DNA of 64,000 nt, from contig JAURXY010000034.1 of NCBI GenBank assembly GCA_030654225.1, forward strand, positions 25,184-89,183, read 5' to 3'. Under the pieces are notes generated by a model. It was not told the origin of the DNA and ran no database searches. It saw only the letters and a program-made list of their open reading frames with translations. Within the stretch, counting starts at the first letter, position 1; each line of letters begins with the position of its first letter. Source of the stretch: a bacterium (GTDB taxonomy: Bacteria; Patescibacteriota; Minisyncoccia; Moranbacterales; UBA2206). Shown here piece after piece: positions 3,646-60,357 of this stretch. Both the position numbers and the translations under genes were made by a program.

Positions 3646-3816
3646 TGTGGTAGAATAGAAAAAACAAAAGATTCCTTCTCTCCCTTTTGGAGAGATGTCG
3701 CGTACTCGCGACAGAGAGGGAAGAGTTAAATTAAAAATAATAAAATAATCTTAGTTTCTCCCTCATCCGCCCTTCGGGCACCTTCTCCCGAAGGGAGAAG
3801 GTGGAAATGAAAAATT

Positions 3817-4372: not shown

Positions 4373-5431
4373 ATGAAATTATTAGTCACTGGTGGTGCGG
4401 GGTTTATCGGTTCAAATTTCATTCACTATTGGATCGAAAAACATCCGCAAGATTTAATTGTCAATTTGGACGCCTTGACCTATGCCGGCAATTTGGAAAA
4501 TTTGAAATCCATTGAAAGCCCGCCTCGCGTCGACGAGCGATCGTCTTCGCGAGTCGAGGCGGGTAATCCGAATTATAAATTTGTCAAAGCTGATATTTCC
4601 GACAAGGAAAAAATCAACGAAATAATTTCCACTGAAAAACCAGATGCAATTGTGCACTACGCCGCTGAATCGCATGTTGATCGCTCAATTTTAGGACCAG
4701 AAGCTTTTGTTCGAACGAATGTTTTGGGCACGTTTAATTTATTAGAAGCAGCACGCCAAAATGGCAACATCCGCTTTCATCACGTTTCCACAGATGAGGT
4801 TTTTGGCTCACTAGGCCCAAATGACGCACCTTTCAATGAAACGACGCCTTATGACCCCAGAAGCCCCTATAGCGCTTCTAAAGCGTCTTCAGACCACTTA
4901 GTGCGAGCCTATTTTCACACTTTTGGCCTGCCAATTACTATCTCTAATTGTTCCAATAATTTTGGTCCATTTCAATTTCCAGAGAAACTAATTCCACTAT
5001 TTGTAACCAATCTGATCGAAGGCAAAAAAATTCCCCTTTATGGCGATGGAATGAATGTTCGCGATTGGCTCTATGTCGAAGATCACTCCGGCGCAATTGA
5101 TCTAATTTTGCAAAAAGGCAAGATTGGCGAAACTTATTGCGTTGGCGGAAACACGGAAAAAAACAATAAGGAAATTACTTATAAAATTTTGGAACTGATG
5201 GGTAAGGGCGAAGAGATGATTGAATTTGTAGCAGATCGAAAAGGACATGATTTGCGCTATTCAATTGATTTTTCCAAGATTCAGCACGAACTTGGCTGGA
5301 CGCCAAAAACTTCCTTTGAAGACGGAATGAAAAAAACTATCCAGTGGTACAAAGAAAATGAAAGTTGGTGGAAAGAAATAAAATCTGGCGAATACCAGAA
5401 TTACTACGAGAAAAATTATAAAGATAGATAA
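4373..5431 (+). CDS. rfbB: dTDP-glucose 4,6-dehydratase (SDR) with an in-frame 15-codon palindromic insertion
   Basis: 352 aa; 'LLVTGGAGFIGSNF' Rossmann motif, YxxxK and 'LDALTYAGNLENL'. Extra 'PPRVDERSSSRVEAG' is encoded by the GC-rich palindrome at 4519-4563. Confidence 0.9.
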   Translation: MKLLVTGGAGFIGSNFIHYWIEKHPQDLIVNLDALTYAGNLENLKSIESPPRVDERSSSRVEAGNPNYKFVKADISDKEKINEIISTEKPDAIVHYAAESHVDRSILGPEAFVRTNVLGTFNLLEAARQNGNIRFHHVSTDEVFGSLGPNDAPFNETTPYDPRSPYSASKASSDHLVRAYFHTFGLPITISNCSNNFGPFQFPEKLIPLFVTNLIEGKKIPLYGDGMNVRDWLYVEDHSGAIDLILQKGKIGETYCVGGNTEKNNKEITYKILELMGKGEEMIEFVADRKGHDLRYSIDFSKIQHELGWTPKTSFEDGMKKTIQWYKENESWWKEIKSGEYQNYYEKNYKDR

Positions 5432-9555: not shown

Positions 9556-10638
9556 TTAGGATAGAATTTCCTTTATTTCCTCTAAACTCTCCGCCATAAC
9601 TAATTTTCGGCGCAATTCTGAGGCTCCAGGGAAACCTTTGACATACCAACTCATATGCTTTCGAATTTCAAAAAGTCCTTGTTGACCCTTGTTTTTGTGG
9701 ATTAATTTTGCATGAAGAAGCATTATTTTCTTTACCCTGTTAAGTAAATTTTGCTCTGCAAAATTATTTTTCGTAATCGAAAAATACTTAACAGGGTGAA
9801 TTTTTTTAAAATCGTATTTTGCCCCCGTAGAGACGCCCCGACGGGGCGTCTCTACACAATTCAATAATTCTTTTATCTCCTCAAAAATCCACGGCTTACC
9901 CCAAGCGCCCCGGGCAATTCCAAGACCATCCAAAAGAGGATGGTCTTGCAAAATTTTCACGCCATCCTCAGCGGAATTTATCCCACCGTTCGCCAAAACG
10001 ATTTTTTCCGGAAACATTTTTTTGATTTTTTCAACAAGATTGAAATCTAGCGAACCAGAAAACCCACCTTCATATGTTCGACCATGAATCATAATGACCG
10101 AGTAGGGAAGATCAGCTGTGCTTTTGACAAAATCAAGGGCTGAAAATCCTAAAGCCGAGCTTTGAGAATTTTTTAAAAGCTCGGCTTTAGGATTTTCAAT
10201 ACCTGCTCGAATTTTTATAGACACCGGCAATTTGGTATTTTCACAAACAGCCGAAATAATTTCACGCGCCAATTTTTTTTGCATCATTAGCGCGCAACCC
10301 GAACCATGACCAAAAACTTTTTTGGCCGGACAACCAAAATTAATGTCAATTCCATCTGGCTTCACTATTTGCGAAATAATTTTAGTGGCCTTGGCAAAAT
10401 GCGCCGGGTCTTTCCCAAAAAGTTGCACCACGTATGGCCGTTCAGCTCTATTAAATTTTACTAATTCTAAAGTTTTTTGAGGTTTAAAAAATAAAGCGCT
10501 AACGCTTGCCATTTCCGAATATACCACATCCGCTCCATATCGCCGGCAAATTTGACGAAACGCACTGTCCGTTATGCCCGCCATCGGGGCTAGAGCCAGA
10601 ATTGGTTTTTTCAATTTTAACCAAAAATTTTTATTCAC
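9556..10638 (-). CDS. dus: tRNA-dihydrouridine synthase (probable GTG start) with an in-frame palindromic insertion
   Basis: 360 aa; 'LAPMAGITDSAFRQICRRYGADVVYSEM' plus FMN-binding TIM-barrel motifs. The 29-nt perfect palindrome at 9827-9855 encodes extra residues in 'ETPRRGVSTGA'. Confidence 0.9.
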   Translation of the reverse strand: MNKNFWLKLKKPILALAPMAGITDSAFRQICRRYGADVVYSEMASVSALFFKPQKTLELVKFNRAERPYVVQLFGKDPAHFAKATKIISQIVKPDGIDINFGCPAKKVFGHGSGCALMMQKKLAREIISAVCENTKLPVSIKIRAGIENPKAELLKNSQSSALGFSALDFVKSTADLPYSVIMIHGRTYEGGFSGSLDFNLVEKIKKMFPEKIVLANGGINSAEDGVKILQDHPLLDGLGIARGAWGKPWIFEEIKELLNCVETPRRGVSTGAKYDFKKIHPVKYFSITKNNFAEQNLLNRVKKIMLLHAKLIHKNKGQQGLFEIRKHMSWYVKGFPGASELRRKLVMAESLEEIKEILS

Positions 10639-10808: not shown

Positions 10809-12245
10809 TTATTTTTTAATTAAATAATTATTATCTTTTAAATCTTCAATCACATAACCCGCCGATTCAATCTTCTTTCGCAGTTCATCTGAGGCTGCAA
10901 AATTCCCACTGATGCGAGCTTGTTTTCGCTCTTCGGCGAGCGTCAAAATATTCGCCGGAATTTCAATTTTATTTTCCGCAATTATCAATCCAAAAACTTT
11001 GTTTATTCTTTCCCAAAATTTCAAAATATTCTCAGCTGTTTCTTTGTCTAATTTATCCTCAGAAATCATTTTGTTAGTTTCACTAATCAGATCATATACT
11101 ACTGCCAAAGCCAATGGGGTATTGATATCATCATTCATGGCGCTTTCAAACCTTTTTTGATAGATATGAGAAAAATCTATTTTTTCTAAAGATTCCGCCT
11201 TTGGTGCGTCAGAAACATTTTTCAAATTACCCACCCAATCAGAAATTTTTTGCAAATTATTTTTGGCCTGAACGAGAACGCTAGGCGCATAATTCATAAC
11301 ACTTCTATATTGTGAACTCAGGATCCAGAGTCTTATCACCATTGGATCATATTCTTTTAGTATATCTTTTACAGAAGTGTGATTTCCTTTCGATTTAGAC
11401 ATTTTTTCACCATTTATATTGACCATATTCCAGAGTGTCCAGTAATTGGCCATTTTTTTGCCTAAATATGCTTCACTTTGAGCAACTTCATTTTCATTGT
11501 GCGGAAAAACATTCTCATTGCCTCCACCGTGGATGTCGAAAGTATCTTGACCAAGAAGATCAGCTGACATAACAGAACATTCAATATGCCAACCAGGATA
11601 TCCCAAACTCCAGGGACTTTGCCATTTCAAAATGTGATTTTCATCTGACTTTATCCAAAGAGCAAAATCTAGCTGATTTTTCTTTTCAGGATTATTTTCT
11701 ATACGCGCACCATCAATCAACTCCTCGGTTTTTCTTCCAGAAAGCTTTCCGTATTCTGGGAATTTGGTTACAGAAAAATATACGGATCCATTAGATTCGT
11801 AAGCATATTCTTTTTCAATTAAACCTTCAATGAATTTAATTATTTGTGCAATATATTGCGTTGGACGAGGATTAAAATTAGCTGGTTTGATATTTAGAGA
11901 TTGGAAATCTTCCTTGGCAGAATTGATATAATTTTCAACAATTTCCATTGGATCAATTTTTTCTGCTTTAGCTTTTTTTTCAATTTTATCTTCTCCTGTT
12001 TCGGCGTCATTCACAAGATGCCCAACATCTGTATAGTTCATAATAAATCTAACTTCATACCCTAAATATTCTAAATATTTTCTAAAAATATCCATTGAGA
12101 CATATCCGCGAGCATGACCGATGTGACAATGATCATAAACTGTCGGACCGCAAACATACATTCCGACTTTTCCCGTATAAATCGGTTTAAATTCTTCTTT
12201 TTTTCTAGTTAGAGTATTGTACAATAATAACATAATTTTTTTCAT
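10809..12245 (-). CDS. cysS: Cysteinyl-tRNA synthetase
   Basis: 478 aa; 'HIGH' (CHIGHARG) and 'KMSKS' motifs plus zinc-binding cysteines. Confidence 0.95.
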   Translation of the reverse strand: MKKIMLLLYNTLTRKKEEFKPIYTGKVGMYVCGPTVYDHCHIGHARGYVSMDIFRKYLEYLGYEVRFIMNYTDVGHLVNDAETGEDKIEKKAKAEKIDPMEIVENYINSAKEDFQSLNIKPANFNPRPTQYIAQIIKFIEGLIEKEYAYESNGSVYFSVTKFPEYGKLSGRKTEELIDGARIENNPEKKNQLDFALWIKSDENHILKWQSPWSLGYPGWHIECSVMSADLLGQDTFDIHGGGNENVFPHNENEVAQSEAYLGKKMANYWTLWNMVNINGEKMSKSKGNHTSVKDILKEYDPMVIRLWILSSQYRSVMNYAPSVLVQAKNNLQKISDWVGNLKNVSDAPKAESLEKIDFSHIYQKRFESAMNDDINTPLALAVVYDLISETNKMISEDKLDKETAENILKFWERINKVFGLIIAENKIEIPANILTLAEERKQARISGNFAASDELRKKIESAGYVIEDLKDNNYLIKK

Positions 12246-13223: not shown

Positions 13224-13294
13224 TGTCATCCTGAATTTATTTCAGGATCTTATTTTTTTATTTTAGAGATGCTGAAACGAGTTCAGCATGACAA
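13224..13294. repeat. Hairpin repeat element, family C ('tgtcatcctgaa...ttcaggatc' plus 'gatgctgaaac..gttcagcatgaca')
   Basis: Two adjacent hairpins with GTCAT/ATGAC ends. Related copies at 22246-22314, 29807-29833 and 30129-30217. Confidence 0.7.
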
Positions 13295-18180: not shown

Positions 18181-18327
18181 TGTCATCCTCGCACCCGCTT
18201 CGCGAGCATAAACTCCAGCGGGGATCCAGTATATAGACTAAGTTTATTGCGATAAAAATTATTTTGATACTAGATTCCCGTTTTCACTCGCCTCGCTGAA
18301 GCTTTGGCGAAGCGGGCGGGAATGACA
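18181..18327. mobile_element. MITE-like element, family A (TIR tgtcatcctcgc / gcgggaatgaca), copy 1
   Basis: 147 nt between fmt and def. Terminal inverted repeats; internal 'taagtttattgcgataaaaattatttt' shared with the copy at 18776-18872. Confidence 0.75.
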
Positions 18328-18328
18328 G

Positions 18329-18769
18329 CTATTTCTTGTCTATAAAAAGCATTCCGTTTAAATGATCAATCTCGTGTTGCAAGGCTCGCGAGAGAAGTCC
18401 TTCGGCTTTGATTTCAATTTTTTCTCCTTTTTTATCCAAGGCCTTCACGGTGACTTTTTTGTGTCTCTTGACTGGGATAAATTTTCCAGGAAAAGATAGA
18501 CAACCCTCTTCGCAAATTTCTTTTCCCCAAGATTTTCGAGCAATTTTCGGGTTGATTAGAATATGCGTTTTTCCATCTAATTTTATAATACAAAGTTGCA
18601 CTGATTGTCCCACTTGCGGAGCAGCCAAGCCCAAAGCATTGCCACTTTCTTCCATAGTCGCAATCATATCCAAAATCAAGTCTTTGATTTCTCGACTTTT
18701 TGGTTCTTTTATCTTCTTCGCTTTTTGACGAAGAATTTCATTAGGATAGGTTATTATTGGTAATATCAT
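18329..18769 (-). CDS. def: Peptide deformylase
   Basis: 146 aa; 'GLAAPQVG', 'EGCLSFPG' and 'HEIDHLNG' motifs. Confidence 0.95.
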   Translation of the reverse strand: MILPIITYPNEILRQKAKKIKEPKSREIKDLILDMIATMEESGNALGLAAPQVGQSVQLCIIKLDGKTHILINPKIARKSWGKEICEEGCLSFPGKFIPVKRHKKVTVKALDKKGEKIEIKAEGLLSRALQHEIDHLNGMLFIDKK

Positions 18770-18775
18770 ATTTTA

Positions 18776-18872
18776 TGTCATCTCCGCGTAGGCGGGGATC
18801 TAGTGTATAGATTAAGTTTATTGCGATAAAAATTATTTTTATGACTGGATTCCCGTTTTCACGGGAATGACA
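18776..18872. mobile_element. MITE-like element, family A, copy 2
   Basis: tgtcatctccgcgtaggcggggatc ... ggattcccgttttcacgggaatgaca. The two copies flank def. Confidence 0.75.
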
Positions 18873-18877
18873 ATGCT

Positions 18878-20902
18878 TTAAATAATTGAAATTGGATCTC
18901 GATCGATTATCCAACCTGATTTGAGTTTTCTAATTTCTTTTTCTAATTCAATTGGAATTTTATCTGGAAATTTAACAATCATTTGCTTTCGCCAGCGTCC
19001 TCTGATTTTTGAGAGCAGGGGAGTGTGCGGTTCAGATATTTTTATTCCTTTTGCTGATTTTAATATTTCAAAAACTGCCAGACTTTCTTTTTCAACTTTT
19101 TCAAAATTATAATCCTGAAAAACCAATTTGACAATTTTCCCATACGGCGGAAAATTCAAAGCTTTTCGTTCCTCAATTATCTTTTGAAAAAAACTTTGAA
19201 AATTATTTTCTCCGGCCAATTGAATAATTTTATTTTCCGGTTGATATGTTTGAATAACCACTTCTCCAGGAAAGCGCGCTCCAGGGCGATTCACTCTCCC
19301 GGCAAGCTGAGAGATTATTTGAAAGGCCTTTTCTTCAGCCGAAAAATCAGGAAATGACAAAAGATTATCTGCATCTATTATACCAACCAATGACACGCGA
19401 GGCAAATCCCAGCCCTTGGAAATCATCTGCGTTCCAATCAAAATATCCGCCTCACCTTTGGAAAAAGCATCATAAATTTTTTCATGAAAATTTTGTTCTT
19501 TTGAAGAGGCTGTGTCAGCCACAATTATTTTGGCCGAAGGAAACAAACTCAAAATTTCTTTTTCTACTTTTTGCGTTCCCAATCCAACGTTTTTGAAACT
19601 TATCCCGCCACATTTCTCGCATTTTGGAAAAATACTCGTCTTATAATTACAATGATTGCATTTATAGAATCCGCCTTTTTCATAAACAAGCGCCCGCTCA
19701 CACTCAGGACACTTGAGCACTGCTTTGCACGCTTCACAAATTGAAAAACTACTCATACCTTGGCGATTGATAAACAAGATTGATTGCTGTTTATTTTTTA
19801 GCGCATATTCAATTTCACCTTTTAATTTTCTTGATATGCAAGTATAGTTTCCTGCCTGCCGATGAGGCAGGTTGGTCCAGCGTTCTTTTTTCATGTCAAC
19901 GATGGTGGTGTTTGGTATTTTATATTTAGTGTCTAATATTTCAAGATGTGGCAATTCTAATAATTTCAAATCTTTGTTAATCGCACGATAATATGATTCG
20001 ATACTTGGCGTAGCTGAGCCACGAACGATTTTCGCTTTATGAATCTCAGCTAATTTTTCTGCCACCGTTCTAGCGTCGTAACGCGGATTCATATCCCACT
20101 GTTTGAAAGACATATCCTGTTCTTCATCAATCACAATAAGCCCGAGTTTTTTAAACGGCGCAAAAACCGCCATGCGAGTACCAATAACTATTTTTATTTT
20201 TCCTGATTGAATGCCTTGCCAAGTAGAAAAAATCTGTCCCTTGGAAATATTACTACTTAAAACCCCAATTTCTTCCGGCTTAAAATATGCACCATATCTT
20301 TCCATGGCCTGCGGAGTCAAAGTTTTTTCTGGGATAATAATCAGAAATTGAAAATTCTTATTTATTTTTCTTAATTCAATAATTGAATTTATATAAACCT
20401 CCGTCTTCCCCGATCCCGCCGGACCAAAAAGCAAGTAATTTGTAATTGGTAATTTGTAATTGGTAATTTTTTTGACAGCATCTTTTTGCTCTTTTGTTAA
20501 TACAATATTTCCTCCTCTCCCTTCGGGAGAGGATGTCCGAAGGACAGGAGAGGGAGCTTTGCGTGATTTCATACGCTTTGGGACAAAATTTTTCATCACT
20601 ACACCCAATGGAGAAATATAATAATCAGAAATAAATTTTGCCAATTCTATTTGGCTATCGGAGAGAAAATTTTCAACGATTATTTTTTCAACTTTTTTTA
20701 GTTCAATATTACCCAATCTTTCAAAATCCTGCCTCGTCCCCAAAACAATTCCTTCCACACTTCGATGAAAAAGGGGAATCGAGACCAAGGTTCCAGTTGA
20801 AATTTTGACATCTGACAAATAGGAAAAAGACTGATGGGAAGACATCGGAATTTTTGTTAGTGGAACAATGTCGATAATAAACTTCTGCTTTTTGTTTGCC
20901 AT
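18878..20902 (-). CDS. priA: Primosomal protein N' (PriA helicase) carrying two in-frame hairpin insertions
   Basis: 674 aa; Walker A 'GPAGSGKTEVY', DEEQ box and a Cys4 zinc finger (CEACKAVLKCPECE...CNHC). Palindromes at 19851-19871 and 20511-20556 lie in-frame. Confidence 0.9.
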   Translation of the reverse strand: MANKKQKFIIDIVPLTKIPMSSHQSFSYLSDVKISTGTLVSIPLFHRSVEGIVLGTRQDFERLGNIELKKVEKIIVENFLSDSQIELAKFISDYYISPLGVVMKNFVPKRMKSRKAPSPVLRTSSPEGRGGNIVLTKEQKDAVKKITNYKLPITNYLLFGPAGSGKTEVYINSIIELRKINKNFQFLIIIPEKTLTPQAMERYGAYFKPEEIGVLSSNISKGQIFSTWQGIQSGKIKIVIGTRMAVFAPFKKLGLIVIDEEQDMSFKQWDMNPRYDARTVAEKLAEIHKAKIVRGSATPSIESYYRAINKDLKLLELPHLEILDTKYKIPNTTIVDMKKERWTNLPHRQAGNYTCISRKLKGEIEYALKNKQQSILFINRQGMSSFSICEACKAVLKCPECERALVYEKGGFYKCNHCNYKTSIFPKCEKCGGISFKNVGLGTQKVEKEILSLFPSAKIIVADTASSKEQNFHEKIYDAFSKGEADILIGTQMISKGWDLPRVSLVGIIDADNLLSFPDFSAEEKAFQIISQLAGRVNRPGARFPGEVVIQTYQPENKIIQLAGENNFQSFFQKIIEERKALNFPPYGKIVKLVFQDYNFEKVEKESLAVFEILKSAKGIKISEPHTPLLSKIRGRWRKQMIVKFPDKIPIELEKEIRKLKSGWIIDRDPISII

Positions 20903-22245: not shown

Positions 22246-22314
22246 TGTCATACTGAACTTGTTTCAGTATCTAAAAAATTGCAAAGCAGATCCCGAAATA
22301 AATTCGGGATGACA
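22246..22314. repeat. Hairpin repeat element, family C
   Basis: tgtcatactgaacttgtttcagtatc ... gatcccgaaataaattcgggatgacaa. Confidence 0.65.
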
Positions 22315-22325
22315 AAACAATAACT

Positions 22326-22766
22326 ATGACAACAAAGACAACAAGATTAGTTCGATCAATTTATTTGTATCTAGCAGCGCTTATTAGTCTTATTTTTGTA
22401 GCAGTTGGAGCCGGAAGAATTATAAACACGACCCTAAAGGCATATGTTTTTCCGGAAGCGGAAAAAGGAGGGTATGGAATGTGCAGAAATGAGCCTCCGA
22501 TGTATGAGCTTACAGCTTCCAAATCCATAGAAAATGCAAAAGATAGTGAAATAACAACTCAAGAACAAAAAGATCAACTAGCATCTCTTTTGGTTGATTA
22601 TAAAAACTGGAAAGAAAATAATTCCGGAGATATTTGCTTCAAAAGAGAAAGACAAACAAATTATGTCGATTCATTCACAATGCTTCTTGTTGCCCTACCA
22701 TTATGTCTTCTGCATTGGAGAATAATCAAAAAAGATAAGGAGGAAAAAGAAACTGAAAACGCTTAA
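22326..22766 (+). CDS. Hypothetical membrane protein
   Basis: 146 aa; N-terminal TM and a second C-terminal TM; no family assigned. Confidence 0.45.
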   Translation: MTTKTTRLVRSIYLYLAALISLIFVAVGAGRIINTTLKAYVFPEAEKGGYGMCRNEPPMYELTASKSIENAKDSEITTQEQKDQLASLLVDYKNWKENNSGDICFKRERQTNYVDSFTMLLVALPLCLLHWRIIKKDKEEKETENA

Positions 22767-23371: not shown

Positions 23372-24940
23372 ATGAACAAAATCAGAACTAGATTTGCGCC
23401 GTCGCCGACGGGATACTTGCATATTGGGGGTCTTCGGACTGCACTGTATGATTATTTATTCGCCAAAAAAAATGGTGGTGATTTTTTGTTGAAAATTGAA
23501 GATACTGATCGAAAAAGATTTGTTGAAGGTGCGGTGGAAAAATTAATAATTTCATTAGATTTTCTAGGATTGGAAAGAAATGAAGGAGTAATGTTAAACA
23601 ATAATACCAATGGTCAGGAATCAAAAAATTATCCCAGAGTTTTTGAAGTAGGCGAATATGGACCTTATATTCAATCAGAAAAATTAGAAATTTACAAAAA
23701 ACATGTTGATGAATTAGTGAAAAATGGCCATGCCTATTATTGTTTTTGCGAACCAAAAAGACTTGAGGAAATGAGATCTGAACAAACCGCCCAAAAACAA
23801 CCCCCTATTTATGATAGATTTTGTTTGCAAAATGTTAGCGAAGAAGAAATAAATAAAAATCTAAAAAATAATTGTCCCTATACTATTCGAATTAAAGTTC
23901 CGCACGACGAAATAATTGAAGTGGATGACGAAATCAGAGGACGCGTTAAATTTAATACTAATTTAGTCACCGATCAAATACTTTTGAAATCTGACGGCTT
24001 TCCCACTTATCATTTAGCTAGCATCATAGATGACCATGATATGCAAATCACACATGTTATTCGTGGCGAAGAATGGCTTCCGAGCATTCCAATTCATATT
24101 TTATTATATCGCTATTTCAATTGGGAAGCTCCGAAATTTGCTCACTTACCACTTCTTCTTAATCTAGACAAATCCAAACTTTCTAAGCGTCAGGGGGATG
24201 TGGCGGTGGAAGATTACATTAAAAACGGATATTTAAAAGAAGCTCTTATTAATTTTGTAGCCTTTTTAGGTTGGAATCCTGGGAAAGGAGAAACGCAAGA
24301 AATTTTCACGCTTGAAGAATTAGTGGAGAAATTTGATCTGACTCATGTTCACAAGGCGGGCGCAGTTTTTGACATCAAAAAATTAGATTGGATAAATTCA
24401 CAGTGGATCAAGAAACTTTCCATCGAAGAGTTATATCAAAAATCTTTGCCATTTCTTGAGGAAAAAGAATTTTATAAAAATGCTAGTGCAGAAAAAAAAT
24501 CCGAAGACTATATCAAAAAAATCCTTTCCATTGAACAGGACCGTCTCACAAATTTGTCAGAAGTGGGGGAGAGCAATCAGTTCTTTTTTAGGGATACAAA
24601 TTTTGACAAAGAACTTTTACGCTGGAAAGATATGAATGACGAAGACTTGAAAAAATCACTAGAAAAATCTCTCCGCGTTTTGGAAAATATAACGGACGAA
24701 AATTGGACGCGCGAAAATTTGGAAAAAATTCTGATGGAAAAGGCGGATGAAAAGCCTGCCTCGCCGGCTCGCCTCGCTGGAGCTATGGCGAAGCGGGCAG
24801 GCGGGAGGGGAGAGCTCCTCTGGCCACTGCGCGCCACGCTTACGGGAGAGAAAAAATCACCTTCACCATTTGAATGTGCGTGGGTGCTTGGGAAAGAAGA
24901 AACATTATCGAGATTAAAAAATACAATAGGCAAAATATAA
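23372..24940 (+). CDS. gltX: Glutamyl-tRNA synthetase with a GC-rich, MITE-derived in-frame insertion
   Basis: 522 aa; 'RFAPSPTGYLHIGG' and 'KLSKR' motifs. The 24751-24850 segment shares about 30 nt with the MITE family A arm. Confidence 0.9.
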   Translation: MNKIRTRFAPSPTGYLHIGGLRTALYDYLFAKKNGGDFLLKIEDTDRKRFVEGAVEKLIISLDFLGLERNEGVMLNNNTNGQESKNYPRVFEVGEYGPYIQSEKLEIYKKHVDELVKNGHAYYCFCEPKRLEEMRSEQTAQKQPPIYDRFCLQNVSEEEINKNLKNNCPYTIRIKVPHDEIIEVDDEIRGRVKFNTNLVTDQILLKSDGFPTYHLASIIDDHDMQITHVIRGEEWLPSIPIHILLYRYFNWEAPKFAHLPLLLNLDKSKLSKRQGDVAVEDYIKNGYLKEALINFVAFLGWNPGKGETQEIFTLEELVEKFDLTHVHKAGAVFDIKKLDWINSQWIKKLSIEELYQKSLPFLEEKEFYKNASAEKKSEDYIKKILSIEQDRLTNLSEVGESNQFFFRDTNFDKELLRWKDMNDEDLKKSLEKSLRVLENITDENWTRENLEKILMEKADEKPASPARLAGAMAKRAGGRGELLWPLRATLTGEKKSPSPFECAWVLGKEETLSRLKNTIGKI

Positions 24941-26795: not shown

Positions 26796-28004
26796 TTATT
26801 TTTTATTATTTAAATAGAAATCCCTAAGCACATTGCCAGAAACTTTTCTTAATTTTTCCACTGATCCCTTGATTACTTTCACAGCATAATCAATTTCTTT
26901 TTTGGTCGTATTTTTTCCGAGCGTCAATCGCAGTGACCCATGCGTTTCTTCCGGTTTCAAACCAAGTGCCAAAAGCACATGCGATGGAGAAAGCGATCCT
27001 GATGAACAAGCAGAACCAGTCGAAGCAAAAACTCCTTCTTGCGAGAGCATCATAAGTAGACTCTCCCCTTCTACTCGCGAAAAATTTACATTCACATTAT
27101 TTGGTGATCTTTTTATTTTCGAACCATTCAATCTTGAATCCGGAATTTCTTTGAGAATTTTTGCAATTAAATAATCTCTTAACTTTTGAATTTGCATATT
27201 GTTCTTTGTTCTTTGATCATTGATCATTGATATTGCACTTCCAAGACCAACAATTCCTGGCGTATTAATTGTGCCTGCGCGCAATCCAAATTCTTGCGCC
27301 CCACCATCTTGAATTTTGGCTATATTAAGCCCAAATTTGGCATATAACGCCCCCACTCCCTTTGGTCCATATATTTTATGCGCTGACATTGAAAGTAAAT
27401 CCACGCCTAATTTTTCCACATTACAATCAAAATAATTTACCGCCTGCGTCGCATCGGTATGGAAAATTATTTTAGCATTATTTTTTTTAATCATTTTTCC
27501 AATTTCGGAAATTGGTTGCACAGTGCCAATTTCATTGTTAACATACATCATAGAAACAAAAATTGTATTTGACTTGATCGCATTTTTTATATCCGCAACA
27601 CTTATAACCCCGTCTTTTTTTGGATTGATAAACGTTGCTTCGATTAGATTTTCTTTTTCCATTTTCTTCACTGTCTCCAAAACACAATGATGTTCAAAGG
27701 TAGTCGTGATTACATGTGGTTTCTTTTTTTCTTTTTTATAATACGCTTTCACCACTCCCTTTATAGCAAGGTTATTCGATTCGGTTGCGCCACTGGTAAA
27801 AATAATTTCATTTAAATTAGCATTGAAATATTTTGCCACTTGCATTCTGGCTTTTTCCACTGCTTGATCCGCTTCTTGACCAAAAGAATGAAGTGATGAA
27901 GCATTGCCAAAATTCTGACTAAAATACGGTATCATTTCCTTTAATACTTTTTTGTCTATCGGTGTAGTCGCTGCGTGATCTAAATAAATTGTTTTTTTTG
28001 TCAT
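26796..28004 (-). CDS. iscS: Cysteine desulfurase (IscS/NifS)
   Basis: 'YLDHAATTP' plus PLP lysine 'SAHKIYGPKG' and 'SACSSGS'. The ORF's first ATG (28019) lies inside the MITE terminus, so the second ATG (28004) is chosen. Confidence 0.9.
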   Translation of the reverse strand: MTKKTIYLDHAATTPIDKKVLKEMIPYFSQNFGNASSLHSFGQEADQAVEKARMQVAKYFNANLNEIIFTSGATESNNLAIKGVVKAYYKKEKKKPHVITTTFEHHCVLETVKKMEKENLIEATFINPKKDGVISVADIKNAIKSNTIFVSMMYVNNEIGTVQPISEIGKMIKKNNAKIIFHTDATQAVNYFDCNVEKLGVDLLSMSAHKIYGPKGVGALYAKFGLNIAKIQDGGAQEFGLRAGTINTPGIVGLGSAISMINDQRTKNNMQIQKLRDYLIAKILKEIPDSRLNGSKIKRSPNNVNVNFSRVEGESLLMMLSQEGVFASTGSACSSGSLSPSHVLLALGLKPEETHGSLRLTLGKNTTKKEIDYAVKVIKGSVEKLRKVSGNVLRDFYLNNKK

Positions 28005-28013
28005 AAAATGTTT

Positions 28014-28092
28014 TGTCATTCCCGTGAAAACGGGAATCTAGTCTCAAATCACTAAGTTTCTACACTAGATTCCCGCCTACGCGGGAATGACA
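28014..28092. mobile_element. MITE-like element, family B (TIR tgtcattcccg / cgggaatgaca), copy 1
   Basis: tgtcattcccgtgaaaacgggaatctagtctcaaatcactaagtttctacactagattcccgcctacgcgggaatgaca; between iscS and iscR. Confidence 0.75.
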
Positions 28093-28096
28093 GAGG

Positions 28097-28501
28097 TTAG
28101 TTTTTTATTAAATCGCTCAATTTTATTCCATACAAAGTTTTTCTAATTTGCTCACCTAATTTTATCCACACGAAACTGGAAGCACATTTTTTCATCGCCG
28201 AGCAATGTATTCCTTGGCATTTGGCTGTCATCGGCCCTTCCATGATCTCAATAATCTCCCCCGCAGAAATTTCTTTCGGTTTTCTCGCCAAGACATACCC
28301 ACCATTTTTTCCTTTGATACTTTTGACTAATCCACTCTTTCGCAAATCACCAATCAATCTTTCCAGATATTTAGCCGAGATTTTTTCTTCTATTGATATC
28401 TCTTTTATATTCTTAATTTGAGGATAATTACGCGCCAAATTAACTATTGCTCGAAGCCCATATTCCCCTTTTGTTGATATCTTTAACATTTGTTTATTCA
28501 T
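28097..28501 (-). CDS. iscR: Rrf2-family transcriptional regulator (IscR-like)
   Basis: 134 aa; wHTH 'KGEYGLRAIVNLA' and C-terminal Cys cluster 'CQGIHCSAMKKC'. Confidence 0.85.
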   Translation of the reverse strand: MNKQMLKISTKGEYGLRAIVNLARNYPQIKNIKEISIEEKISAKYLERLIGDLRKSGLVKSIKGKNGGYVLARKPKEISAGEIIEIMEGPMTAKCQGIHCSAMKKCASSFVWIKLGEQIRKTLYGIKLSDLIKN

Positions 28502-28582
28502 ACTAATTTAGTATGCTTTAATTATAATCTTTTTGAAATAATCTGTCAACAGTGTTATAATTAAAATGTAATTGTAATTTTT

Positions 28583-28662
28583 ATGTCATCCTCGCGAATG
28601 CGGGGATCCAGTCTCAAATCATTAATTTTCTACACTAGATTCCCGCATTCGCGGGAATGACA
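28583..28662. mobile_element. MITE-like element, family B, copy 2
   Basis: tgtcatcctcgcgaatgcggggatccagtctcaaatcattaattttctacactagattcccgcattcgcgggaatgaca. The two copies flank iscR. Confidence 0.75.
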
Positions 28663-29806: not shown

Positions 29807-29833
29807 TGTCATCCTGAACTTGTTTCAGGATCC
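29807..29833. repeat. Hairpin repeat element, family C
   Basis: tgtcatcctgaacttgtttcaggatcc, immediately upstream of the GIY-YIG ORF. Confidence 0.65.
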
Positions 29834-29843
29834 CTATTAATCT

Positions 29844-30152
29844 ATGAAACAATATTGTGTTTACATTATTACTAATAAACTAAATAAAGTTTTTTATATT
29901 GGATTTACTGGAAATTTACCAAAAAGAATTTACGAACATAAAAATAAATTAGTAAAAGGATTTTCTGAAAAATATAATTTAACAAAATTAGTTTATTTTG
30001 AGCAAACAACGGATGTTTATTCTGCTATCTCCAGAGAAAAACAACTAAAAAATTGGCACAGGGATTGGAAAATAAACCTGATAACTAAAAGTAATCCGGG
30101 TTGGATAGATTTGTATGACACATTATTAGATGCTGAAACAAGTTCAGCATGA
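29844..30152 (+). CDS. GIY-YIG nuclease-domain protein (stand-alone, about 100 aa)
   Basis: 'VYIITN...FYIGFTGNLPKRIYEHK' GIY-YIG motif. The ORF's 3' end overlaps the downstream hairpin element. Confidence 0.75.
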   Translation: MKQYCVYIITNKLNKVFYIGFTGNLPKRIYEHKNKLVKGFSEKYNLTKLVYFEQTTDVYSAISREKQLKNWHRDWKINLITKSNPGWIDLYDTLLDAETSSA

Positions 30153-30217
30153 CAGTCTTTTTTATCTTATCATCCTGAGTTTGTCTTTTTGTCATCCTGA
30201 ATTTATTTCAGGATCTC
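30129..30217. repeat. Hairpin repeat cluster, family C
   Basis: gatgctgaaacaagttcagcatgaca ... tcatcctgagtttgtc ... tgtcatcctgaatttatttcaggatc. Confidence 0.7.
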
Positions 30218-31708: not shown

Positions 31709-31746
31709 AGTGTTTTAATTTTGTTCGTAGATTCGCATATAATTCG

Positions 31747-31790
31747 CCCGCCTCGCGTCGACGAGCAATCGTCTTGCGAGTCGAGGCGGG
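31747..31790. repeat. GC-rich palindromic element, second copy of the rfbB insert
   Basis: cccgcctcgcgtcgacgagcaatcgtcttgcgagtcgaggcggg, nearly identical to 4519-4563. Confidence 0.8.
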
Positions 31791-31808
31791 TAGTTTCGCA
31801 TCGGTTAA

Positions 31809-40957: not shown

Positions 40958-42160
40958 TTACATTTCTTCAATTATATTCAAAATCTTCTCACTAAATTTT
41001 TCCCACGAAAATTGCTTGGCTCGTTCTTGACCTCTGTTTTTTAGTTGTTCTCGCAAGTCATGATTAGTCAAAACATTCTTCAAAACCATCGCGATATCAG
41101 TTATGTCATCAGGATTACAATATAGCACACTATCTCCACCAACTTCTGGCAGTGAGGAAACTTTTGAAGTGATGACAGGCGTGCCAACATTCATTGCTTC
41201 CAGAATTTGCATGCCGAAACCTTCATAATGTGATGGATAGACAAACATAACAGCCTCACTAAACAGTGCTGGCAAATCTTTTTGCGGAACTTCACCCAAA
41301 AGAATCACGTGTTTCGTTAAATTTAATTCTTTAAGAATTCTTTCTATCGGCGTTGCCAGGCTCAAACTTTCCGGCAAAACTTTCCCGTATATCGCTAACT
41401 TCGGAAAATTTGGCAAGAAATTTTCTTTTTTGTTTCTTTCCAAAAGCAACTTATATGCCCGCACCACTCCTTCGACATTTTTCCGCACTTCATATCCCCC
41501 ACCAGCCAAAACATATCCGGGATTTATTTTGTATTTCTTCAAAATATTCGCATGTCCAGCATTCGTAGCGCCGGTTCGCGAAGCGAATAACTCATCTACA
41601 TCTATATAATTAGTAGTAATTTTGTCTGCGCCTATATTTAAGTGTTCAATTAGATCTTTTTCTGTCCTTTTGGAAACAGCAACAATTTTGTCCGCCTTTT
41701 TTATCCCATATTCTGTTAATTTCCAATACAATTTCTTTCTAAAGTTATCCAGATATTTGGGAAACAATTTTGGAATAATATCATGCACCAGCATAATATG
41801 CTTCACTTCCTTATATGGTTGAATGCCCGCCTGCCGGCGAGGCAGGGAAGTAGGACATTGGTACATACTAACAAAAACATCGCAACCGTCTTTTTTGACA
41901 AGGCGCGGCAAAAGGATTTTTTCCCACCAAATTTTTCGAATCAAATCATCGCGCTTATAAACTGGTAGGAATATTTTCTTGCTAAAATTATCAGGAAGCT
42001 TAAAATCTTTTGGAATATCTTCCTCCAAATACAAAACAAATTCAAAATCATTCTGCTTATATCTTACCAACATTTTCAAAAAATTGGTTGTCACTTGCCC
42101 GATGCCCGTATGAGGCTTTCGAAGATAACTTGCATTGATTCCTACTTTTTTCTTTTTCAT
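40958..42160 (-). CDS. Glycosyltransferase family 4 with an in-frame hairpin insertion
   Basis: 400 aa; 'YPSHYEGFGMQILEAMNVGTPVI'. The hairpin at 41826-41848 encodes 'LPRRQAG'. Confidence 0.75.
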   Translation of the reverse strand: MKKKKVGINASYLRKPHTGIGQVTTNFLKMLVRYKQNDFEFVLYLEEDIPKDFKLPDNFSKKIFLPVYKRDDLIRKIWWEKILLPRLVKKDGCDVFVSMYQCPTSLPRRQAGIQPYKEVKHIMLVHDIIPKLFPKYLDNFRKKLYWKLTEYGIKKADKIVAVSKRTEKDLIEHLNIGADKITTNYIDVDELFASRTGATNAGHANILKKYKINPGYVLAGGGYEVRKNVEGVVRAYKLLLERNKKENFLPNFPKLAIYGKVLPESLSLATPIERILKELNLTKHVILLGEVPQKDLPALFSEAVMFVYPSHYEGFGMQILEAMNVGTPVITSKVSSLPEVGGDSVLYCNPDDITDIAMVLKNVLTNHDLREQLKNRGQERAKQFSWEKFSEKILNIIEEM

Positions 42161-51642: not shown

Positions 51643-53262
51643 CTATTTAACCTTCAAAGCAAAAACTGAAAATTGGCGAAAGATTGAACATTTTTCAATG
51701 TCATATTTTTTTGCTATCTCTTGGGAAAGCTCGCATTTAGCCGAAGCATTTTTAAGATAGAATAGCTTGTCTCCTGAGTTTAATTTAATTTCTTTTCTAA
51801 GTTGAATTATTTCAATTTGTTCTTTCCCTGCTAAAAACTGAAGTGAGCGAAGAGATTTGAAAAGATAACCAGCTTGCGCATCAATGTAGGCTGTTTTATT
51901 TTCTGAATTATTTTTGATAAAATCAACGATATATTTCCCCTCTCCTAAAGTCAGATAATCAAAATCTCCATTGATTTCTCTTCCGCCATATTGCAAATCT
52001 TTATAGGTATAGAATATTTTTTGCAAATTGAAAGATGAAAAAATGGCAATAATAGCTATCGCAACCCACAAGCCTTTTTTGAATTTTTTCTCAAAAAAAT
52101 TCAACCAAAATCCCAAGATCAGCAATGGAATAAATAACAACGGCAAAAAGAAACGAACCGCCAATTCAGTGGCCCAAGTTATATAGAAAAGAAAAGACAA
52201 TATTATATAACTAGATATAAGCCCCAGGAAAAGTTTTTTATTCCTATCGCTTTCTTTTATAGCTTTTTTAAATAAGAGAAAATATCCACCCAAAGAAAAT
52301 ACTAGCGACAAAATAATCAAAACAACAAAACTTGCTTTTTCTCCTATGGTCATCCTTGTTCCATCTAACTTTTTGAAAATTTTCCAATCATTTTCATACC
52401 CGCATTCATTTTCATTGCCTAATGATGTGAGGATGTGATTATTGGTTTTGATATGACAAGAAAAATTCAAAAGCAAATTATTCGCCCAACTTCCATTTCG
52501 TTCATTCTTGCTGGTAATTCCCAAAATAAACTGATATGAATTAGCCCCACCGCTTCTAACTTCACTTACAATCTGGGGAATATTAACAAAAATAGTGGAC
52601 GCCACAATGATTACTATTGCCGTTGCTGAAATTATTTTTTTCTTGAAAAAGATAATCGCCGTGAAAAAAGAAAGCACTGGAAGGATTATCAAAAGCGAAG
52701 TATGCAATTGAATGCAAATTCCCAGAGATATTCCTGTCAAAATTGCCCAGGCAATTTTTCTTTTTTGTAAAATTGCCAAATTATAAAGTGCGTAGATAAA
52801 AAGCATCACAAAAAACGGGGTGGAATTTGGATTCCAAGCAAAACGAGAAAATTTAATCGCAAAATATGAAATTGAATACAGCCAAGCCAAAGCCAATGCG
52901 ATGGGAATTTTGAAATAAATTTTTGCTAAAAGAAAAAACATCCCGATTGACAAAATAGAAAAAAATAAATCCGGATAAGCTACTTTTTCCGGCTCTGCCC
53001 CAAATATTTTCGCTGAAACTAACTGAAAATAATAGAATGCTGGGCCAAGCAAAAATTCTGTTCCGCCTGCTCCAGGACCAAGATCTGGCAATCTGTTATT
53101 TTCGCTTAAATTTTCTATCAATTCCACATCGCGCGATTGATCCATATTGAATCTGAGCCAATCAGAAAAATGATAGGTACGCAAAAATATTCCCACTAAA
53201 ATAATCAGCATCAATAATATTGCGACTTGATGTTTTTTTATTTTTCCAAAAAAATTATTCAT
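51643..53262 (-). CDS. ArnT/PMT-like membrane (GT-C fold) glycosyltransferase, subfamily A, paralog 1
   Basis: 539 aa; N-terminal 'FLRTYHFSDWLRFNMDQSRDV' loop motif and 'GPAFYYFQ'. Polytopic; 'FAWNPNS'. Confidence 0.65.
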   Translation of the reverse strand: MNNFFGKIKKHQVAILLMLIILVGIFLRTYHFSDWLRFNMDQSRDVELIENLSENNRLPDLGPGAGGTEFLLGPAFYYFQLVSAKIFGAEPEKVAYPDLFFSILSIGMFFLLAKIYFKIPIALALAWLYSISYFAIKFSRFAWNPNSTPFFVMLFIYALYNLAILQKRKIAWAILTGISLGICIQLHTSLLIILPVLSFFTAIIFFKKKIISATAIVIIVASTIFVNIPQIVSEVRSGGANSYQFILGITSKNERNGSWANNLLLNFSCHIKTNNHILTSLGNENECGYENDWKIFKKLDGTRMTIGEKASFVVLIILSLVFSLGGYFLLFKKAIKESDRNKKLFLGLISSYIILSFLFYITWATELAVRFFLPLLFIPLLILGFWLNFFEKKFKKGLWVAIAIIAIFSSFNLQKIFYTYKDLQYGGREINGDFDYLTLGEGKYIVDFIKNNSENKTAYIDAQAGYLFKSLRSLQFLAGKEQIEIIQLRKEIKLNSGDKLFYLKNASAKCELSQEIAKKYDIEKCSIFRQFSVFALKVK

Positions 53263-55048
53263 TCATATTTATATCACTGGTTAATTCCTCATCTTCTTCA
53301 ATAGTTTGTTTTTTTATCCCAAAAACATCCTTCCAAAAAAGTCGATCAGTTTTGGAATATTTTTTGTTAAACCTAAAATTCTTGGAAATGTTTCTCTCTG
53401 GAAAATTTATCTCATAAACTGAAATTTGTCCACAATCTTGAGAAGACAATATTTCAACTGGCACCCCATATTTTTTTTCTAAGGCTTTTTTTGGCTCCGT
53501 GTCAGAAGGAATAGTTGCAAAATATTGGGCGTTAGGATTATCATTCAAACTCAAAGTTTCATAAACAAAATTAGGATCATTTTTTTGCGCCAAAATATAT
53601 TTTATCGGATTTATATGCTCCGGCTTAGTATAAAAATAACTCGTATCGCCAGTTTTTCTTTTTGTATATATAAAATCGGCCACTTTTTGCAGTTCACTCA
53701 AGGTCACACCATCTTTTGTTTTCAAAATCAAAGTGCGGTTTATTTCCACATCCTTGATTTGAGACTGCTTCATTTCCGAAAACCACGCCAGCGTTCCATA
53801 CACATTCAAGCTAAATATAATGATTGCGACTGCCGAAATAGGATACGCTGATTTTTTCGGCCATCTTTCTTGAAAAAAATTAAATACTACTCCGCTCAAC
53901 AAAAATGGCACAGCAAAAACCAAGATAAAAAATCTTGGACGAAGTTGAAAAGAAACTGGGAAAGTAAAAATGAAAAACACACCTATCCACAAAAACAACA
54001 GTGCCAAAAAATTTCTTCTGCTAGAATCTTTTTCTCTCCTTAGGGCTCGTGCCGACAAAATTATTCCGGAAGAAATAAGGATAATTGTGAGAATTGACGG
54101 CAAATCATTATTTGTGCCATCAAACGGCTCACCTTCTCCGCAAAAAGAAGTAGTGATGAGACAATAATATTTGGTATTCTCAGAAAAATTTTTGGAAATT
54201 TTTTCTGCAAATGATTTGTCTTTTGCTTTGGAACTCAAAGCTTGAATGAAATTTCCGGCATTTTCCCCTTTTCTCATCACATCACTTATAATCACAGGCG
54301 AATAAATCAAAGCAAAAACAGAAATAAAAACCAAAGAATAAATGGCTATTTTTTGCAAAATATTTTTTTGGAATATATCCTTGATTTTTTGCAATTTCCA
54401 AAACTGACTATGAAACAAAATCAAACATCCGGAGATAGCGGTGAGCACAAAGAAACCAAAAAAATGCAGTTGTGATCCGATAGAAAGTCCGAGTACCCAA
54501 ATAATGAGCCAACCTATTTTTCTTTTGAGCTTTTGTTCACTCAGAAACTTCAGGAGTCCAAAAAAAGTCAATAAGGCAAAAAATTGCAACGGATTAGGAT
54601 TCCAAGCAAAACGAGAATATTGAATCACAATGAAAGAAAAAGCATACATCGCCATAGTAAGCAATGAAATATTTTTGGAAAAATAAATTCTCGCCAGAAA
54701 ATACAGCAGGACTATCGCCAAGATTGAAAAAAATAAATCCGGATAGGCAAAAACTTGCGGGGCAGTAGAGTTGGAAATGGCACCCGCGATATATTGAAAA
54801 TAATAATAGGCGGGACCGAGTCTCAAAAATCCACTATCCACTTCGGTTGCACCGGCTCTTGGCCCCAAAAGCGGAAGCATCATTGGTCCTTCATTTATCG
54901 CATGACTAACGAGTTGCGCATCACGCGATTGATCCATTTTGAAATATAGCCAATCGGAAAAATTGTAAAAACGGAAAGCAAAAGCACCGATAACTATCGC
55001 TAGCATAATAATCGTAACGGCATATTTTTTGGTTAGTAAGTTTTTCAT
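53255..55048 (-). CDS. ArnT/PMT-like membrane (GT-C fold) glycosyltransferase, subfamily A, paralog 2
   Basis: 597 aa; 'FYNFSDWLYFKMDQSRDAQL', 'GPAYYYFQ' and 'FAWNPNP'. Confidence 0.65.
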   Translation of the reverse strand: MKNLLTKKYAVTIIMLAIVIGAFAFRFYNFSDWLYFKMDQSRDAQLVSHAINEGPMMLPLLGPRAGATEVDSGFLRLGPAYYYFQYIAGAISNSTAPQVFAYPDLFFSILAIVLLYFLARIYFSKNISLLTMAMYAFSFIVIQYSRFAWNPNPLQFFALLTFFGLLKFLSEQKLKRKIGWLIIWVLGLSIGSQLHFFGFFVLTAISGCLILFHSQFWKLQKIKDIFQKNILQKIAIYSLVFISVFALIYSPVIISDVMRKGENAGNFIQALSSKAKDKSFAEKISKNFSENTKYYCLITTSFCGEGEPFDGTNNDLPSILTIILISSGIILSARALRREKDSSRRNFLALLFLWIGVFFIFTFPVSFQLRPRFFILVFAVPFLLSGVVFNFFQERWPKKSAYPISAVAIIIFSLNVYGTLAWFSEMKQSQIKDVEINRTLILKTKDGVTLSELQKVADFIYTKRKTGDTSYFYTKPEHINPIKYILAQKNDPNFVYETLSLNDNPNAQYFATIPSDTEPKKALEKKYGVPVEILSSQDCGQISVYEINFPERNISKNFRFNKKYSKTDRLFWKDVFGIKKQTIEEDEELTSDINMNE

Positions 55049-55095
55049 AATTTGCTATTTTAGTTTAAGCCAAAAATTATAATTTGGCAAAAAAA

Positions 55096-56721: not shown

Positions 56722-56723
56722 AT

Positions 56724-58382: not shown

Positions 58383-58464
58383 AAATATACTATCTTTACA
58401 ATAAGCCTATTTTTAATTATATTATATACAGATAGATTGTCAAAGTTTAATCTCAATAAAAATT

Positions 58465-60342: not shown

Positions 60343-60357
60343 ATCTTGCTTTGTTTT

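Follow-up and report, generated by a model that had tools for sequence, protein, structure and literature searches.

Introduction

The 64,000-nucleotide stretch of DNA analysed here (the window throughout; positions 25,184 to 89,183 of the forward strand of contig JAURXY010000034.1, assembly GCA_030654225.1) comes from an uncultured, groundwater-type patescibacterium of the Moranbacterales. It carries four short elements with inverted ends that bracket, in two pairs, the single genes def and iscR, and these raise the question of what kind of element they are and what might have brought them to the junctions of operons. A preliminary description took them for non-autonomous MITEs (miniature inverted-repeat transposable elements) of two families, A and B. 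The analysis below points with good confidence to a different identity, namely that each of the four elements consists of two convergent Ssn-related motifs (SRMs), i.e., hairpin repeats akin to the NTS and dRS3 of Neisseria, set around a short AT-rich core, and is probably the counterpart of a neisserial NIME unit, with cleavage by the nuclease Ssn as the likely mechanism.

The four elements and their hairpin ends

The family A pair brackets def (18329-18769, minus strand): an element of 147 nt at 18181-18327, running from a TGTCAT at 18181-18186 to an ATGACA at 18322-18327, occupies the gap between fmt and def, and one of 97 nt at 18776-18872 occupies that between def and priA. The family B pair similarly brackets an Rrf2/IscR-type gene (28097-28501, minus strand), with one 79-nt element at 28014-28092 in the gap between iscS and iscR and another at 28584-28662 in the 5' untranslated region (UTR) of a gene coding for a PD-(D/E)XK protein. 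Since the latter stands between a predicted promoter (28533-28561) and the gene start (28672), it is probably transcribed. The neighbours are recognized by Pfam as fmt, def, priA, a class-V cysteine desulfurase, an Rrf2 regulator and a PD-(D/E)XK protein. Thus, the existence of the four elements, their location in operon junctions and their bracketing of def and iscR are borne out as first described, save that the last element had been started one A early, at 28583, and that the sizes range from 79 to 147 nt. The elements also share their internal sequence within each family, a repeat scan giving 51 nt in common at 92% identity for A and 87 nt at 84% for B, and all four start with TGTCAT and end with ATGACA.

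What does not survive is the notion that these ends are terminal inverted repeats (TIRs) in the sense of transposon ends. Each of them is self-complementary, comprising TGTCAT, a 6-bp stem, a loop of 4-5 nt, the return stem and ATC(Y)AG, and constitutes a 28-nt oriented hairpin module equal to the SRM and NTS/dRS3 repeats. Folded as single-stranded DNA (ssDNA), the elements reach z-scores of -3.3 to -9.7. The statistical signal resides in the whole module and not in the ten-mer GGGAATGACA by itself, which has five exact copies in the window and, with one mismatch allowed, a non-significant six against 4.1 expected.

A scan for the form of the module recovers 15 clean copies in the window, all within 13.2-30.2 kb; one stands alone, and the others form seven convergent pairs whose outer ends are GTCAT. 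The GTCAT 5' flank and a C directly after the palindrome are found in all 15, a T occupies position -1 in 96% of modules, and Y-A-G follows the ATC. Two classes can be distinguished by their stems. Class II modules (e.g., TGTCATTCCCGCGAATGCGGGAATCTAG), with the stem TCCCGY/RCGGGA or the variants CCTCGC or CTCCGC/GCGGGG and a 4-nt loop, make up the four elements described above; class I modules (e.g., TGTCATCCTGAACTTGTTTCAGGATC), with the stems CCTGAA, GCTGAA, ACTGAA or CCCGAA and a 5-nt loop, make up the rest. In the 147-nt element, GC-rich insertions have enlarged the loops of the two convergent class II modules (18182-18226 on the plus and 18273-18326 on the minus strand, around the core TAAGTTTATTGCGATAAAAATTATTTT) to 25 and 36 nt, and the 30-nt insert of the right arm matches positions 1027-1057 of the related locus L001 at 97%.

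The modules are overwhelmingly intergenic: 14 of the 15 lie outside open reading frames (ORFs) of at least 100 aa, though such ORFs cover 94% of the window, and the sole module inside one is that which encodes the tail of the Ssn protein considered below. In approximately 1 Mb of related sequence, 133 non-redundant GTCAT-N16/17-ATC sites were found, with 70 having six out of six stem pairs, where shuffling of the inner sequence leads one to expect 0.45. These fully paired sites fall into 18 stem types, with all four base pairs represented at stem position 1, and, judged from such compensatory changes in the stem, the hairpin is under selection.

The module ends also account for a quirk of gene prediction. 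As claimed in the preliminary description, the ATGACA ends supply spurious in-frame starts, with the longest ORFs of iscS and the PD-(D/E)XK gene beginning at the ATGs at 28019 and 28657, respectively. A second in-frame ATG is found five codons further down in each (28004 in iscS and 28672 in the PD-(D/E)XK gene), and the downstream start fits the length of 374 aa seen in the PD-(D/E)XK orthologues. Separately, a native TGTCAT, formed by an ATGACA start codon, lies 9-11 nt from a doublet in two places, at 28000-28019 (iscS) and 22314-22334 (the DUF5671 gene). Such starts account for two of the seven start codons that face a module (rough binomial P ~0.03, assuming 3.5% ACA second codons), and they may reflect a target preference or chance. 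The gap between iscR and the PD-(D/E)XK gene additionally has back-to-back promoter-like sites at 28521-28561, including, on the minus strand, a perfect TTGACA-17-TATAAT for iscR.

Correspondence with the neisserial repeats

In Neisseria, SsnA is a 94-aa single-domain GIY-YIG protein that targets a 28-nt hairpin repeat, the NTS (CGTCATTCCCGCGMAVGCGGGAATCYRG), which includes the classical dRS3 (Chenal et al., Nat Commun 2025, PMC11893778). It binds and cuts ssDNA only, the cut falling a few nucleotides to the 5' side of the motif. Both cleavage and binding depend critically on the GTCAT and ATC flanks, any loop sequence is tolerated, as are loop extensions, and activity was abolished by mutating Y6, Y17 and E64 or by altering the stem sequence while keeping its structure. 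Homologues of Ssn in multiple phyla are flanked by SRMs, and an NTS-gene-NTS arrangement lowered transformation in Neisseria (PMC11893778).

When the published SRM pattern, HGTCWYN(0-2)YYVSBRHN(0-5)WNVSBRGN(0-2)RNCYNB, was run on the window, six matches were obtained against 0.04 expected from 200 dinucleotide shuffles, and these six are precisely the ends of the elements 18776-18872, 28014-28092 and 28584-28662, both arms of each being recovered. The arms of the fourth element, 18181-18327, miss the pattern only because of their loops of 25 and 36 nt. The resemblance to the neisserial repeat extends to the primary sequence. Two arms match the N. meningitidis NTS consensus at all but two of its 28 positions, one of them in 28014-28092, whose arms are two and three mismatches away, and the other being the right arm of 28584-28662, the TGTCATTCCCGCGAATGCGGGAATCTAG cited above. 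The dRS3 consensus ATTCCC-N8-GGGAAT has four exact matches against zero expected, in both arms of 28014-28092, the right arm of 18776-18872 and one arm of 28584-28662, with the other two arms of these elements being stem variants.

An ssn gene enclosed by its own class of modules

Approximately 1.1 kb from the reported elements, a stretch overlooked in the preliminary description contains the gene of a candidate partner protein. This gene, ssn (29844-30152, plus strand), codes for a predicted 102-aa single-domain GIY-YIG nuclease homologous to the SsnA of Neisseria. Pfam GIY-YIG covers residues 3-78 (E = 6e-17) with no further domain, and comparison with the 94-aa N. gonorrhoeae SsnA orthologue gives 46% identity over 89 aa without gaps (pairwise E = 6e-31), with Y7, Y18 and E65 aligning with Y6, Y17 and E64 of SsnA. 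A tblastn search with the window Ssn retrieved a single N. gonorrhoeae locus (E = 9e-21), and the homology passes the published cut-off for homologues of E < 1e-10. Its top homologues are from Candidatus Moranbacteria and other Patescibacteria; a PDB sequence search and NCBIfam with Ssn returned no specific family. The N. gonorrhoeae locus used for comparison, which has nine NTS within 3.3 kb as convergent pairs, was taken from L108 (NZ_CP119140.1) in PLSDB. Both NZ_CP119140.1 and NZ_CP119142.1 are 2.17-Mb N. gonorrhoeae sequences listed in PLSDB as "plasmids" that are evidently chromosomes.

The ssn gene is flanked on both sides by hairpin modules. A convergent class I pair, 29807-29832 on the plus and 30129-30154 on the minus strand, delimits a cassette at 29807-30154, with the last seven codons and the stop of ssn falling within the right-hand hairpin. 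To its right stands a third class I module at 30190-30215 (plus strand), in the same sense as the left-hand one and also unnoticed before, preceded by a degenerate half-module at 30168-30189. This half-module and module are kept to the right of the ssn cassette in both of the genomic contexts in which it was found. The published SRM pattern has no match to the class I modules around ssn, which nevertheless keep the GTCAT and ATC flanks. Tandem partial 5' half-modules (GTCATCCTGAA...) directly upstream of complete modules are seen in this part of the window (30168-30189) and also at L001 9926-9989, L010 9923-9989 and L014 4527-4572; they may be scars of slippage or of hairpin cleavage and repair.

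Two further doublets, likewise missed earlier, are built from class I modules. That at 13224-13293 (70 nt, upstream of corA) has the stems CCTGAA on the left and GCTGAA on the right, as do the ends of the ssn cassette, and that at 22246-22314 (69 nt, between a WecG-type gene and a DUF5671 gene) has ACTGAA and CCCGAA. The arms of class I doublets equal those of the cassette, including the asymmetry of a left C and a right G, and the doublets look, from their sequences, like ssn cassettes that have been internally deleted. As the local ssn is flanked by class I stems (CCTGAA/GCTGAA), its direct derivatives would be the doublets at 13224 and 22246. As the preliminary description stated, the window has no transposase, neither DDE nor Y1 domains being found in it; its other genes are of housekeeping or polysaccharide function, and ssn is the only gene seen between such ends, whether in the window or in its relatives.

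Gain, loss and relocation in related genomes

Syntenic contigs of Candidatus Moranbacteria were gathered by means of graded homologues of Def, Ssn and the PD-(D/E)XK protein, an exact look-up of the window's Def having given no record. The fetched relative nearest in def, L095 (97% identity in amino acids; ~88-94% in nucleotides across priA, def and fmt), is free of modules over 13 kb: a TAATG overlap joins its def and fmt, its priA-def spacing is 34 nt, and the corA doublet is missing as a clean indel, with the same orthologous site being filled in L096 and L099. The doublet at 22246-22314 is similarly lacking in L001/L105, L102 and L106 and present in L096. Other relatives are empty where the window is filled, as at this WecG|DUF5671 junction, and conversely have doublets where the window has none, for instance at fmt|rhodanese and dus|dnaB. 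The iscS|iscR junction alone exists in five states among relatives: a minimal spacer of 19 nt, a class I doublet, the class II doublet of the window and two unrelated palindromic elements.

Further copies of the reported elements, which the preliminary description had proposed to look for, were recovered for one family and not the other. Full-length copies of family B sit at three different junctions in relatives, those related to 28014-28092 being in L145, L140 and L001; the copy in L145 is 93.7% identical to the window element, though the neighbouring PD-(D/E)XK protein is only ~79% identical. The family A core had no further copy in 0.97 Mb of related loci. In L096, def|fmt holds a different palindromic element whose core weakly resembles that of family A, a likeness judged by eye only.

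The ssn cassette itself shows comparable turnover. At the junction between the PD-(D/E)XK and DUF2062 genes, it is present in two of 45 relatives, one of these being an unrelated ssn variant in L114 (7122-7529; 48% identical, with hairpins of the GTCATTGCGAG...GCAATC type) that looks, from its sequence, like an independent insertion. In several relatives the two genes overlap as TAATG, which is probably the ancestral state of the junction. Elsewhere, a cassette ~95% identical in nucleotides and with the same three-module layout is lodged between the genes for TGT and peptidase U32 in L010, L189 and L014, and the corresponding TGT|U32 site in L190 and L191 is empty, without an SRM. L112 and L113 each have one solo module with a flank in common with the window cassette. 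Compared across these genomes, the elements are gained and lost at gene junctions, the evidence for their mobility being correlative.

The loops of class I modules appear to harbour an element of their own. A GC-rich hairpin of 22 nt, C[CT]GTGCCTCGCCGGCAGGCGGG, is found in such loops after nucleotide 3-4 at five sites (L096 ~5950 and 11574-11619; L099 12678-12724 and 16653-16698; L001 10348-10394), among them one loop of the L096 counterpart of the 22246-22314 doublet, and orthologous doublets differ in whether they have it. Its behaviour resembles that of a second small element, one that has the single-stranded loop as its target. Related to this hairpin are the inserts found in both arms of 18181-18327.

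Other palindromic families also occur at stop/start junctions, namely at def|fmt in L096, L102, L105, L106 and L099, at PD|DUF2062 in L110 and at iscS|iscR in L109 and L110, with the TIRs TTTACGAACTACGAA; CAGAACCACTGATTA; and CCCCCTCTCC...GGAGAGGATGTC. The recurrence of several such families at the same junctions marks gene junctions in this clade as hot spots for mini-elements.

A proposed mechanism and its alternatives

The observations can be brought together in a scheme in which Ssn acts on the modules whenever DNA becomes single-stranded, as at replication forks, during repair or upon uptake. Each module would then fold into its 6-bp hairpin, and Ssn would bind this hairpin along with its oriented flanks, the 5' GTCAT and the 3' ATC, and nick the ssDNA a few nucleotides to the 5' side of the motif. 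Since a doublet has one module per strand, either strand could be cut just outside the element; and since loop extensions are tolerated by Ssn in the published work, the loop-expanded arms of 18181-18327 could still be substrates. These modules would be recognized by the local Ssn or by a paralogue suited to class II stems. Nicking by Ssn followed by host repair or recombination would underlie the spread of the elements. With doublets on either side of def and iscR, either incoming strand would be cleavable on both sides of the gene, and such bracketing might limit or shape the recombination of incoming ssDNA, as the NTS-gene-NTS arrangement does in Neisseria.

A bolder extension may be entertained tentatively, as a possibility that we hold to be doubtful: SRM-ssn-SRM cassettes would represent an unrecognized class of autonomous mobile elements driven by a hydrolytic GIY-YIG ssDNA nuclease in place of a transposase, the 69-147-nt doublets would be their internally deleted, non-autonomous derivatives, and both would invade stop/start junctions in the compact genomes of the candidate phyla radiation (CPR), with their hairpin loops hosting the nested 22-nt mini-hairpin.

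Several points weigh against an account centred on Ssn. The reported elements have class II stems and the local ssn has class I stems, and as a change of stem kills the activity of SsnA, a second ssn paralogue may be the true partner. To our knowledge, GIY-YIG nucleases hydrolyse DNA and have no known strand transfer activity, leaving the arrival of copies at new sites unexplained. Filled and empty sites differ by 5-27 further extra or replaced nucleotides beyond the ends of the doublets, and with relatives only ~88-94% identical in nucleotides, these extra nucleotides at the filled alleles allow no precise boundary of insertion to be defined. Homing of the cassette into an existing SRM fits L112 and L113 and does not fit the empty TGT|U32 site of L190. 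Finally, the core of family A is unmatched beyond the window in the 0.97 Mb searched.

Among the alternatives, the one that fares best accepts the modules as genuine Ssn sites and dispenses with transposition: the elements would spread by homologous or illegitimate recombination of DNA from relatives, and Ssn would be domesticated to restrict or shape the recombination of ssDNA. This accords with the filled and empty alleles differing by replacement of the whole spacer instead of by clean insertion, with the presence of unrelated palindromic families at the same junctions in different relatives, and with the modulation of transformation being the sole tested function of Ssn/NTS (PMC11893778). 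However, family B occupies three non-homologous junctions and the ssn cassette, at ~95% identity, lies between unrelated genes, and homologous recombination with flanking homology cannot explain either of these. The concentration of 15 modules in 17 kb of the window, when L095 and L110, each covering part of it, carry none, also speaks against this alternative, which we regard as having perhaps one chance in a few of being the right one.

That the elements are instead of the REP/REPIN type, served by a RAYT (an IS200/IS605-like Y1 HUH transposase) encoded beyond the window with Ssn as a bystander, is very unlikely. The oriented hairpin doublets with a conserved 5' tag, their intergenic location and the REPIN-like overall hairpin are all reminiscent of this system, and the analogy was drawn by the authors of PMC11893778 themselves. 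Nevertheless, the tag is GTCAT rather than GTAG, ssn is repeatedly enclosed by modules, the association between SRM and ssn holds across phyla (PMC11893778), and neither the window nor the gene tables returned for relatives include a Y1_Tnp, 80 metagenome loci not having been screened.

Still less probable is the original interpretation of classical MITEs, i.e., deletion derivatives of a DDE-type insertion sequence (IS) that are moved in trans, by a transposase encoded elsewhere, through TIRs read in double-stranded DNA, with duplication of the target. What remains of it is descriptive: these are indeed small, non-coding families with inverted ends and common cores that are polymorphic in their presence, having been gained and lost. 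Target-site duplications, the check that the preliminary description had itself set, are absent at each of the six doublets (13224, 18181, 18776, 22246, 28014 and 28584), whose flanks were read directly. Further, the stems of the supposed TIRs vary with compensatory changes, a pattern that points to their being recognized as a folded single strand; the ends coincide with the published SRM/NTS hairpins; and in a window without a transposase domain, the only gene that such ends enclose codes for a GIY-YIG nuclease.

The least probable proposal is that these are conserved cis-regulatory structures (terminators, attenuators or 5'-UTR hairpins) for fmt-def-priA and iscRSU, for although they fold stably and sit in operon junctions and 5' UTRs, they are lacking in L095, the relative nearest in def, with its overlapping def and fmt, give way to unrelated elements in other relatives, recur as identical modules beside functionally unrelated genes and have no match in an Rfam search, which found only a tRNA-Asp. 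A reading as terminators was also rejected because just one module has a T tract.

Relationship to known systems

The closest parallel to the Ssn-centred account is the Ssn/SRM system itself. Common to both are the ~100-aa single-domain GIY-YIG protein, 46% identical and with the catalytic Tyr, Tyr and Glu kept; the 28-nt oriented hairpin flanked 5' by GTCAT and 3' by ATCYRG, whose class II arms fit the published pattern and are near the neisserial NTS; and the intergenic, clustered motifs that flank ssn on both sides. The system described here differs in its host, as the Patescibacteria/CPR are absent from the main text of PMC11893778. It also differs in layout: ssn lies here inside a convergent pair with GTCAT outermost, in the manner of the cargo of an IS, whereas in N. 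gonorrhoeae ssnA has a doublet on either side, their GTCAT turned towards the gene. The class I modules, with their CCTGAA stem and 5-nt loop, fall outside the published pattern, and here the hairpin encodes the last seven codons and the stop of ssn.

A second parallel is that with the NIMEs (dRS3-RS-dRS3), in which 20-bp dRS3 inverted repeats similarly surround short, AT-richer family cores next to genes, with a copy number that is dynamic between relatives. In 2007, NIMEs were described as unobserved outside Neisseria (PMC1797815). In contrast to them, the units found here are isolated, with cores of 17-47 nt, and long multi-unit arrays were not met in the window or its relatives; many arms are stem variants that depart from the dRS3 consensus; and the window shows no IS110-type (PivNM) phage recombinase.

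The REP/REPIN-RAYT and IS200/IS605 systems resemble the present one in their recognition of hairpins in ssDNA, in the oriented 5' tag and in the doublets that form a larger hairpin, as well as in having a gene flanked by its own sites, short non-coding derivatives and no target duplications. The likeness is functional only, as Ssn is a hydrolytic GIY-YIG nuclease and RAYT a Y1 HUH enzyme with a covalent intermediate; the tag, too, is GTCAT as opposed to GTAG. Classical MITEs, such as the Correia elements, are likewise small and come in families with terminal inverted repeats at promoters and operon junctions. The elements of the window differ from them in having no target duplication, no DDE partner and ends that are self-complementary hairpins.

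Other features of the window and its relatives

Beyond the Ssn-related modules, GC-rich palindromic mini-elements are scattered across this window of 35% GC, several of them inside long ORFs (24755-24805, 41826-41846, 19849-19888, 20510-20556, 3758-3798, 4508-4573, 31734-31795 and 9813-9865). That at 24755-24805 is a nested palindrome that forms a 17-aa in-frame insertion in GltX (KPASPARLAGAMAKRAG), absent in the L001 and L102 orthologues and recalling the Rickettsia palindromic elements, with an intergenic copy at L001 1014-1064. A region at 51643-62253 comprises six paralogous genes of ~1.6-1.9 kb, with a PMT_2-type glycosyltransferase domain in both of those scanned, and is the source of the repeat families D1-D6. 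In L096, a free-standing LAGLIDADG_1 ORF of 163 aa (1558-2049), absent from the window, lies in the gap between nifU and an M23 peptidase gene.

Implications

For genome annotation, the elements explain the over-extended starts of iscS and the PD-(D/E)XK gene and the 7-aa tail of Ssn. The comparisons between relatives add evidence of kinds absent from PMC11893778, namely empty and filled orthologous sites, a relocated cassette and doublet arms equal to those of the cassette. These data bear on whether NTS-ssnA-NTS is a selfish mobile element, a notion that they make more concrete without proving it. The Ssn/NTS system, described in 2025 from Neisseria, is extended by these findings to the uncultured Patescibacteria, with one 28-nt motif being just two mismatches away from the meningococcal consensus. 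In the organism itself, the 147-nt element parts def from fmt, breaking the translational coupling seen in the TAATG overlap of L095.

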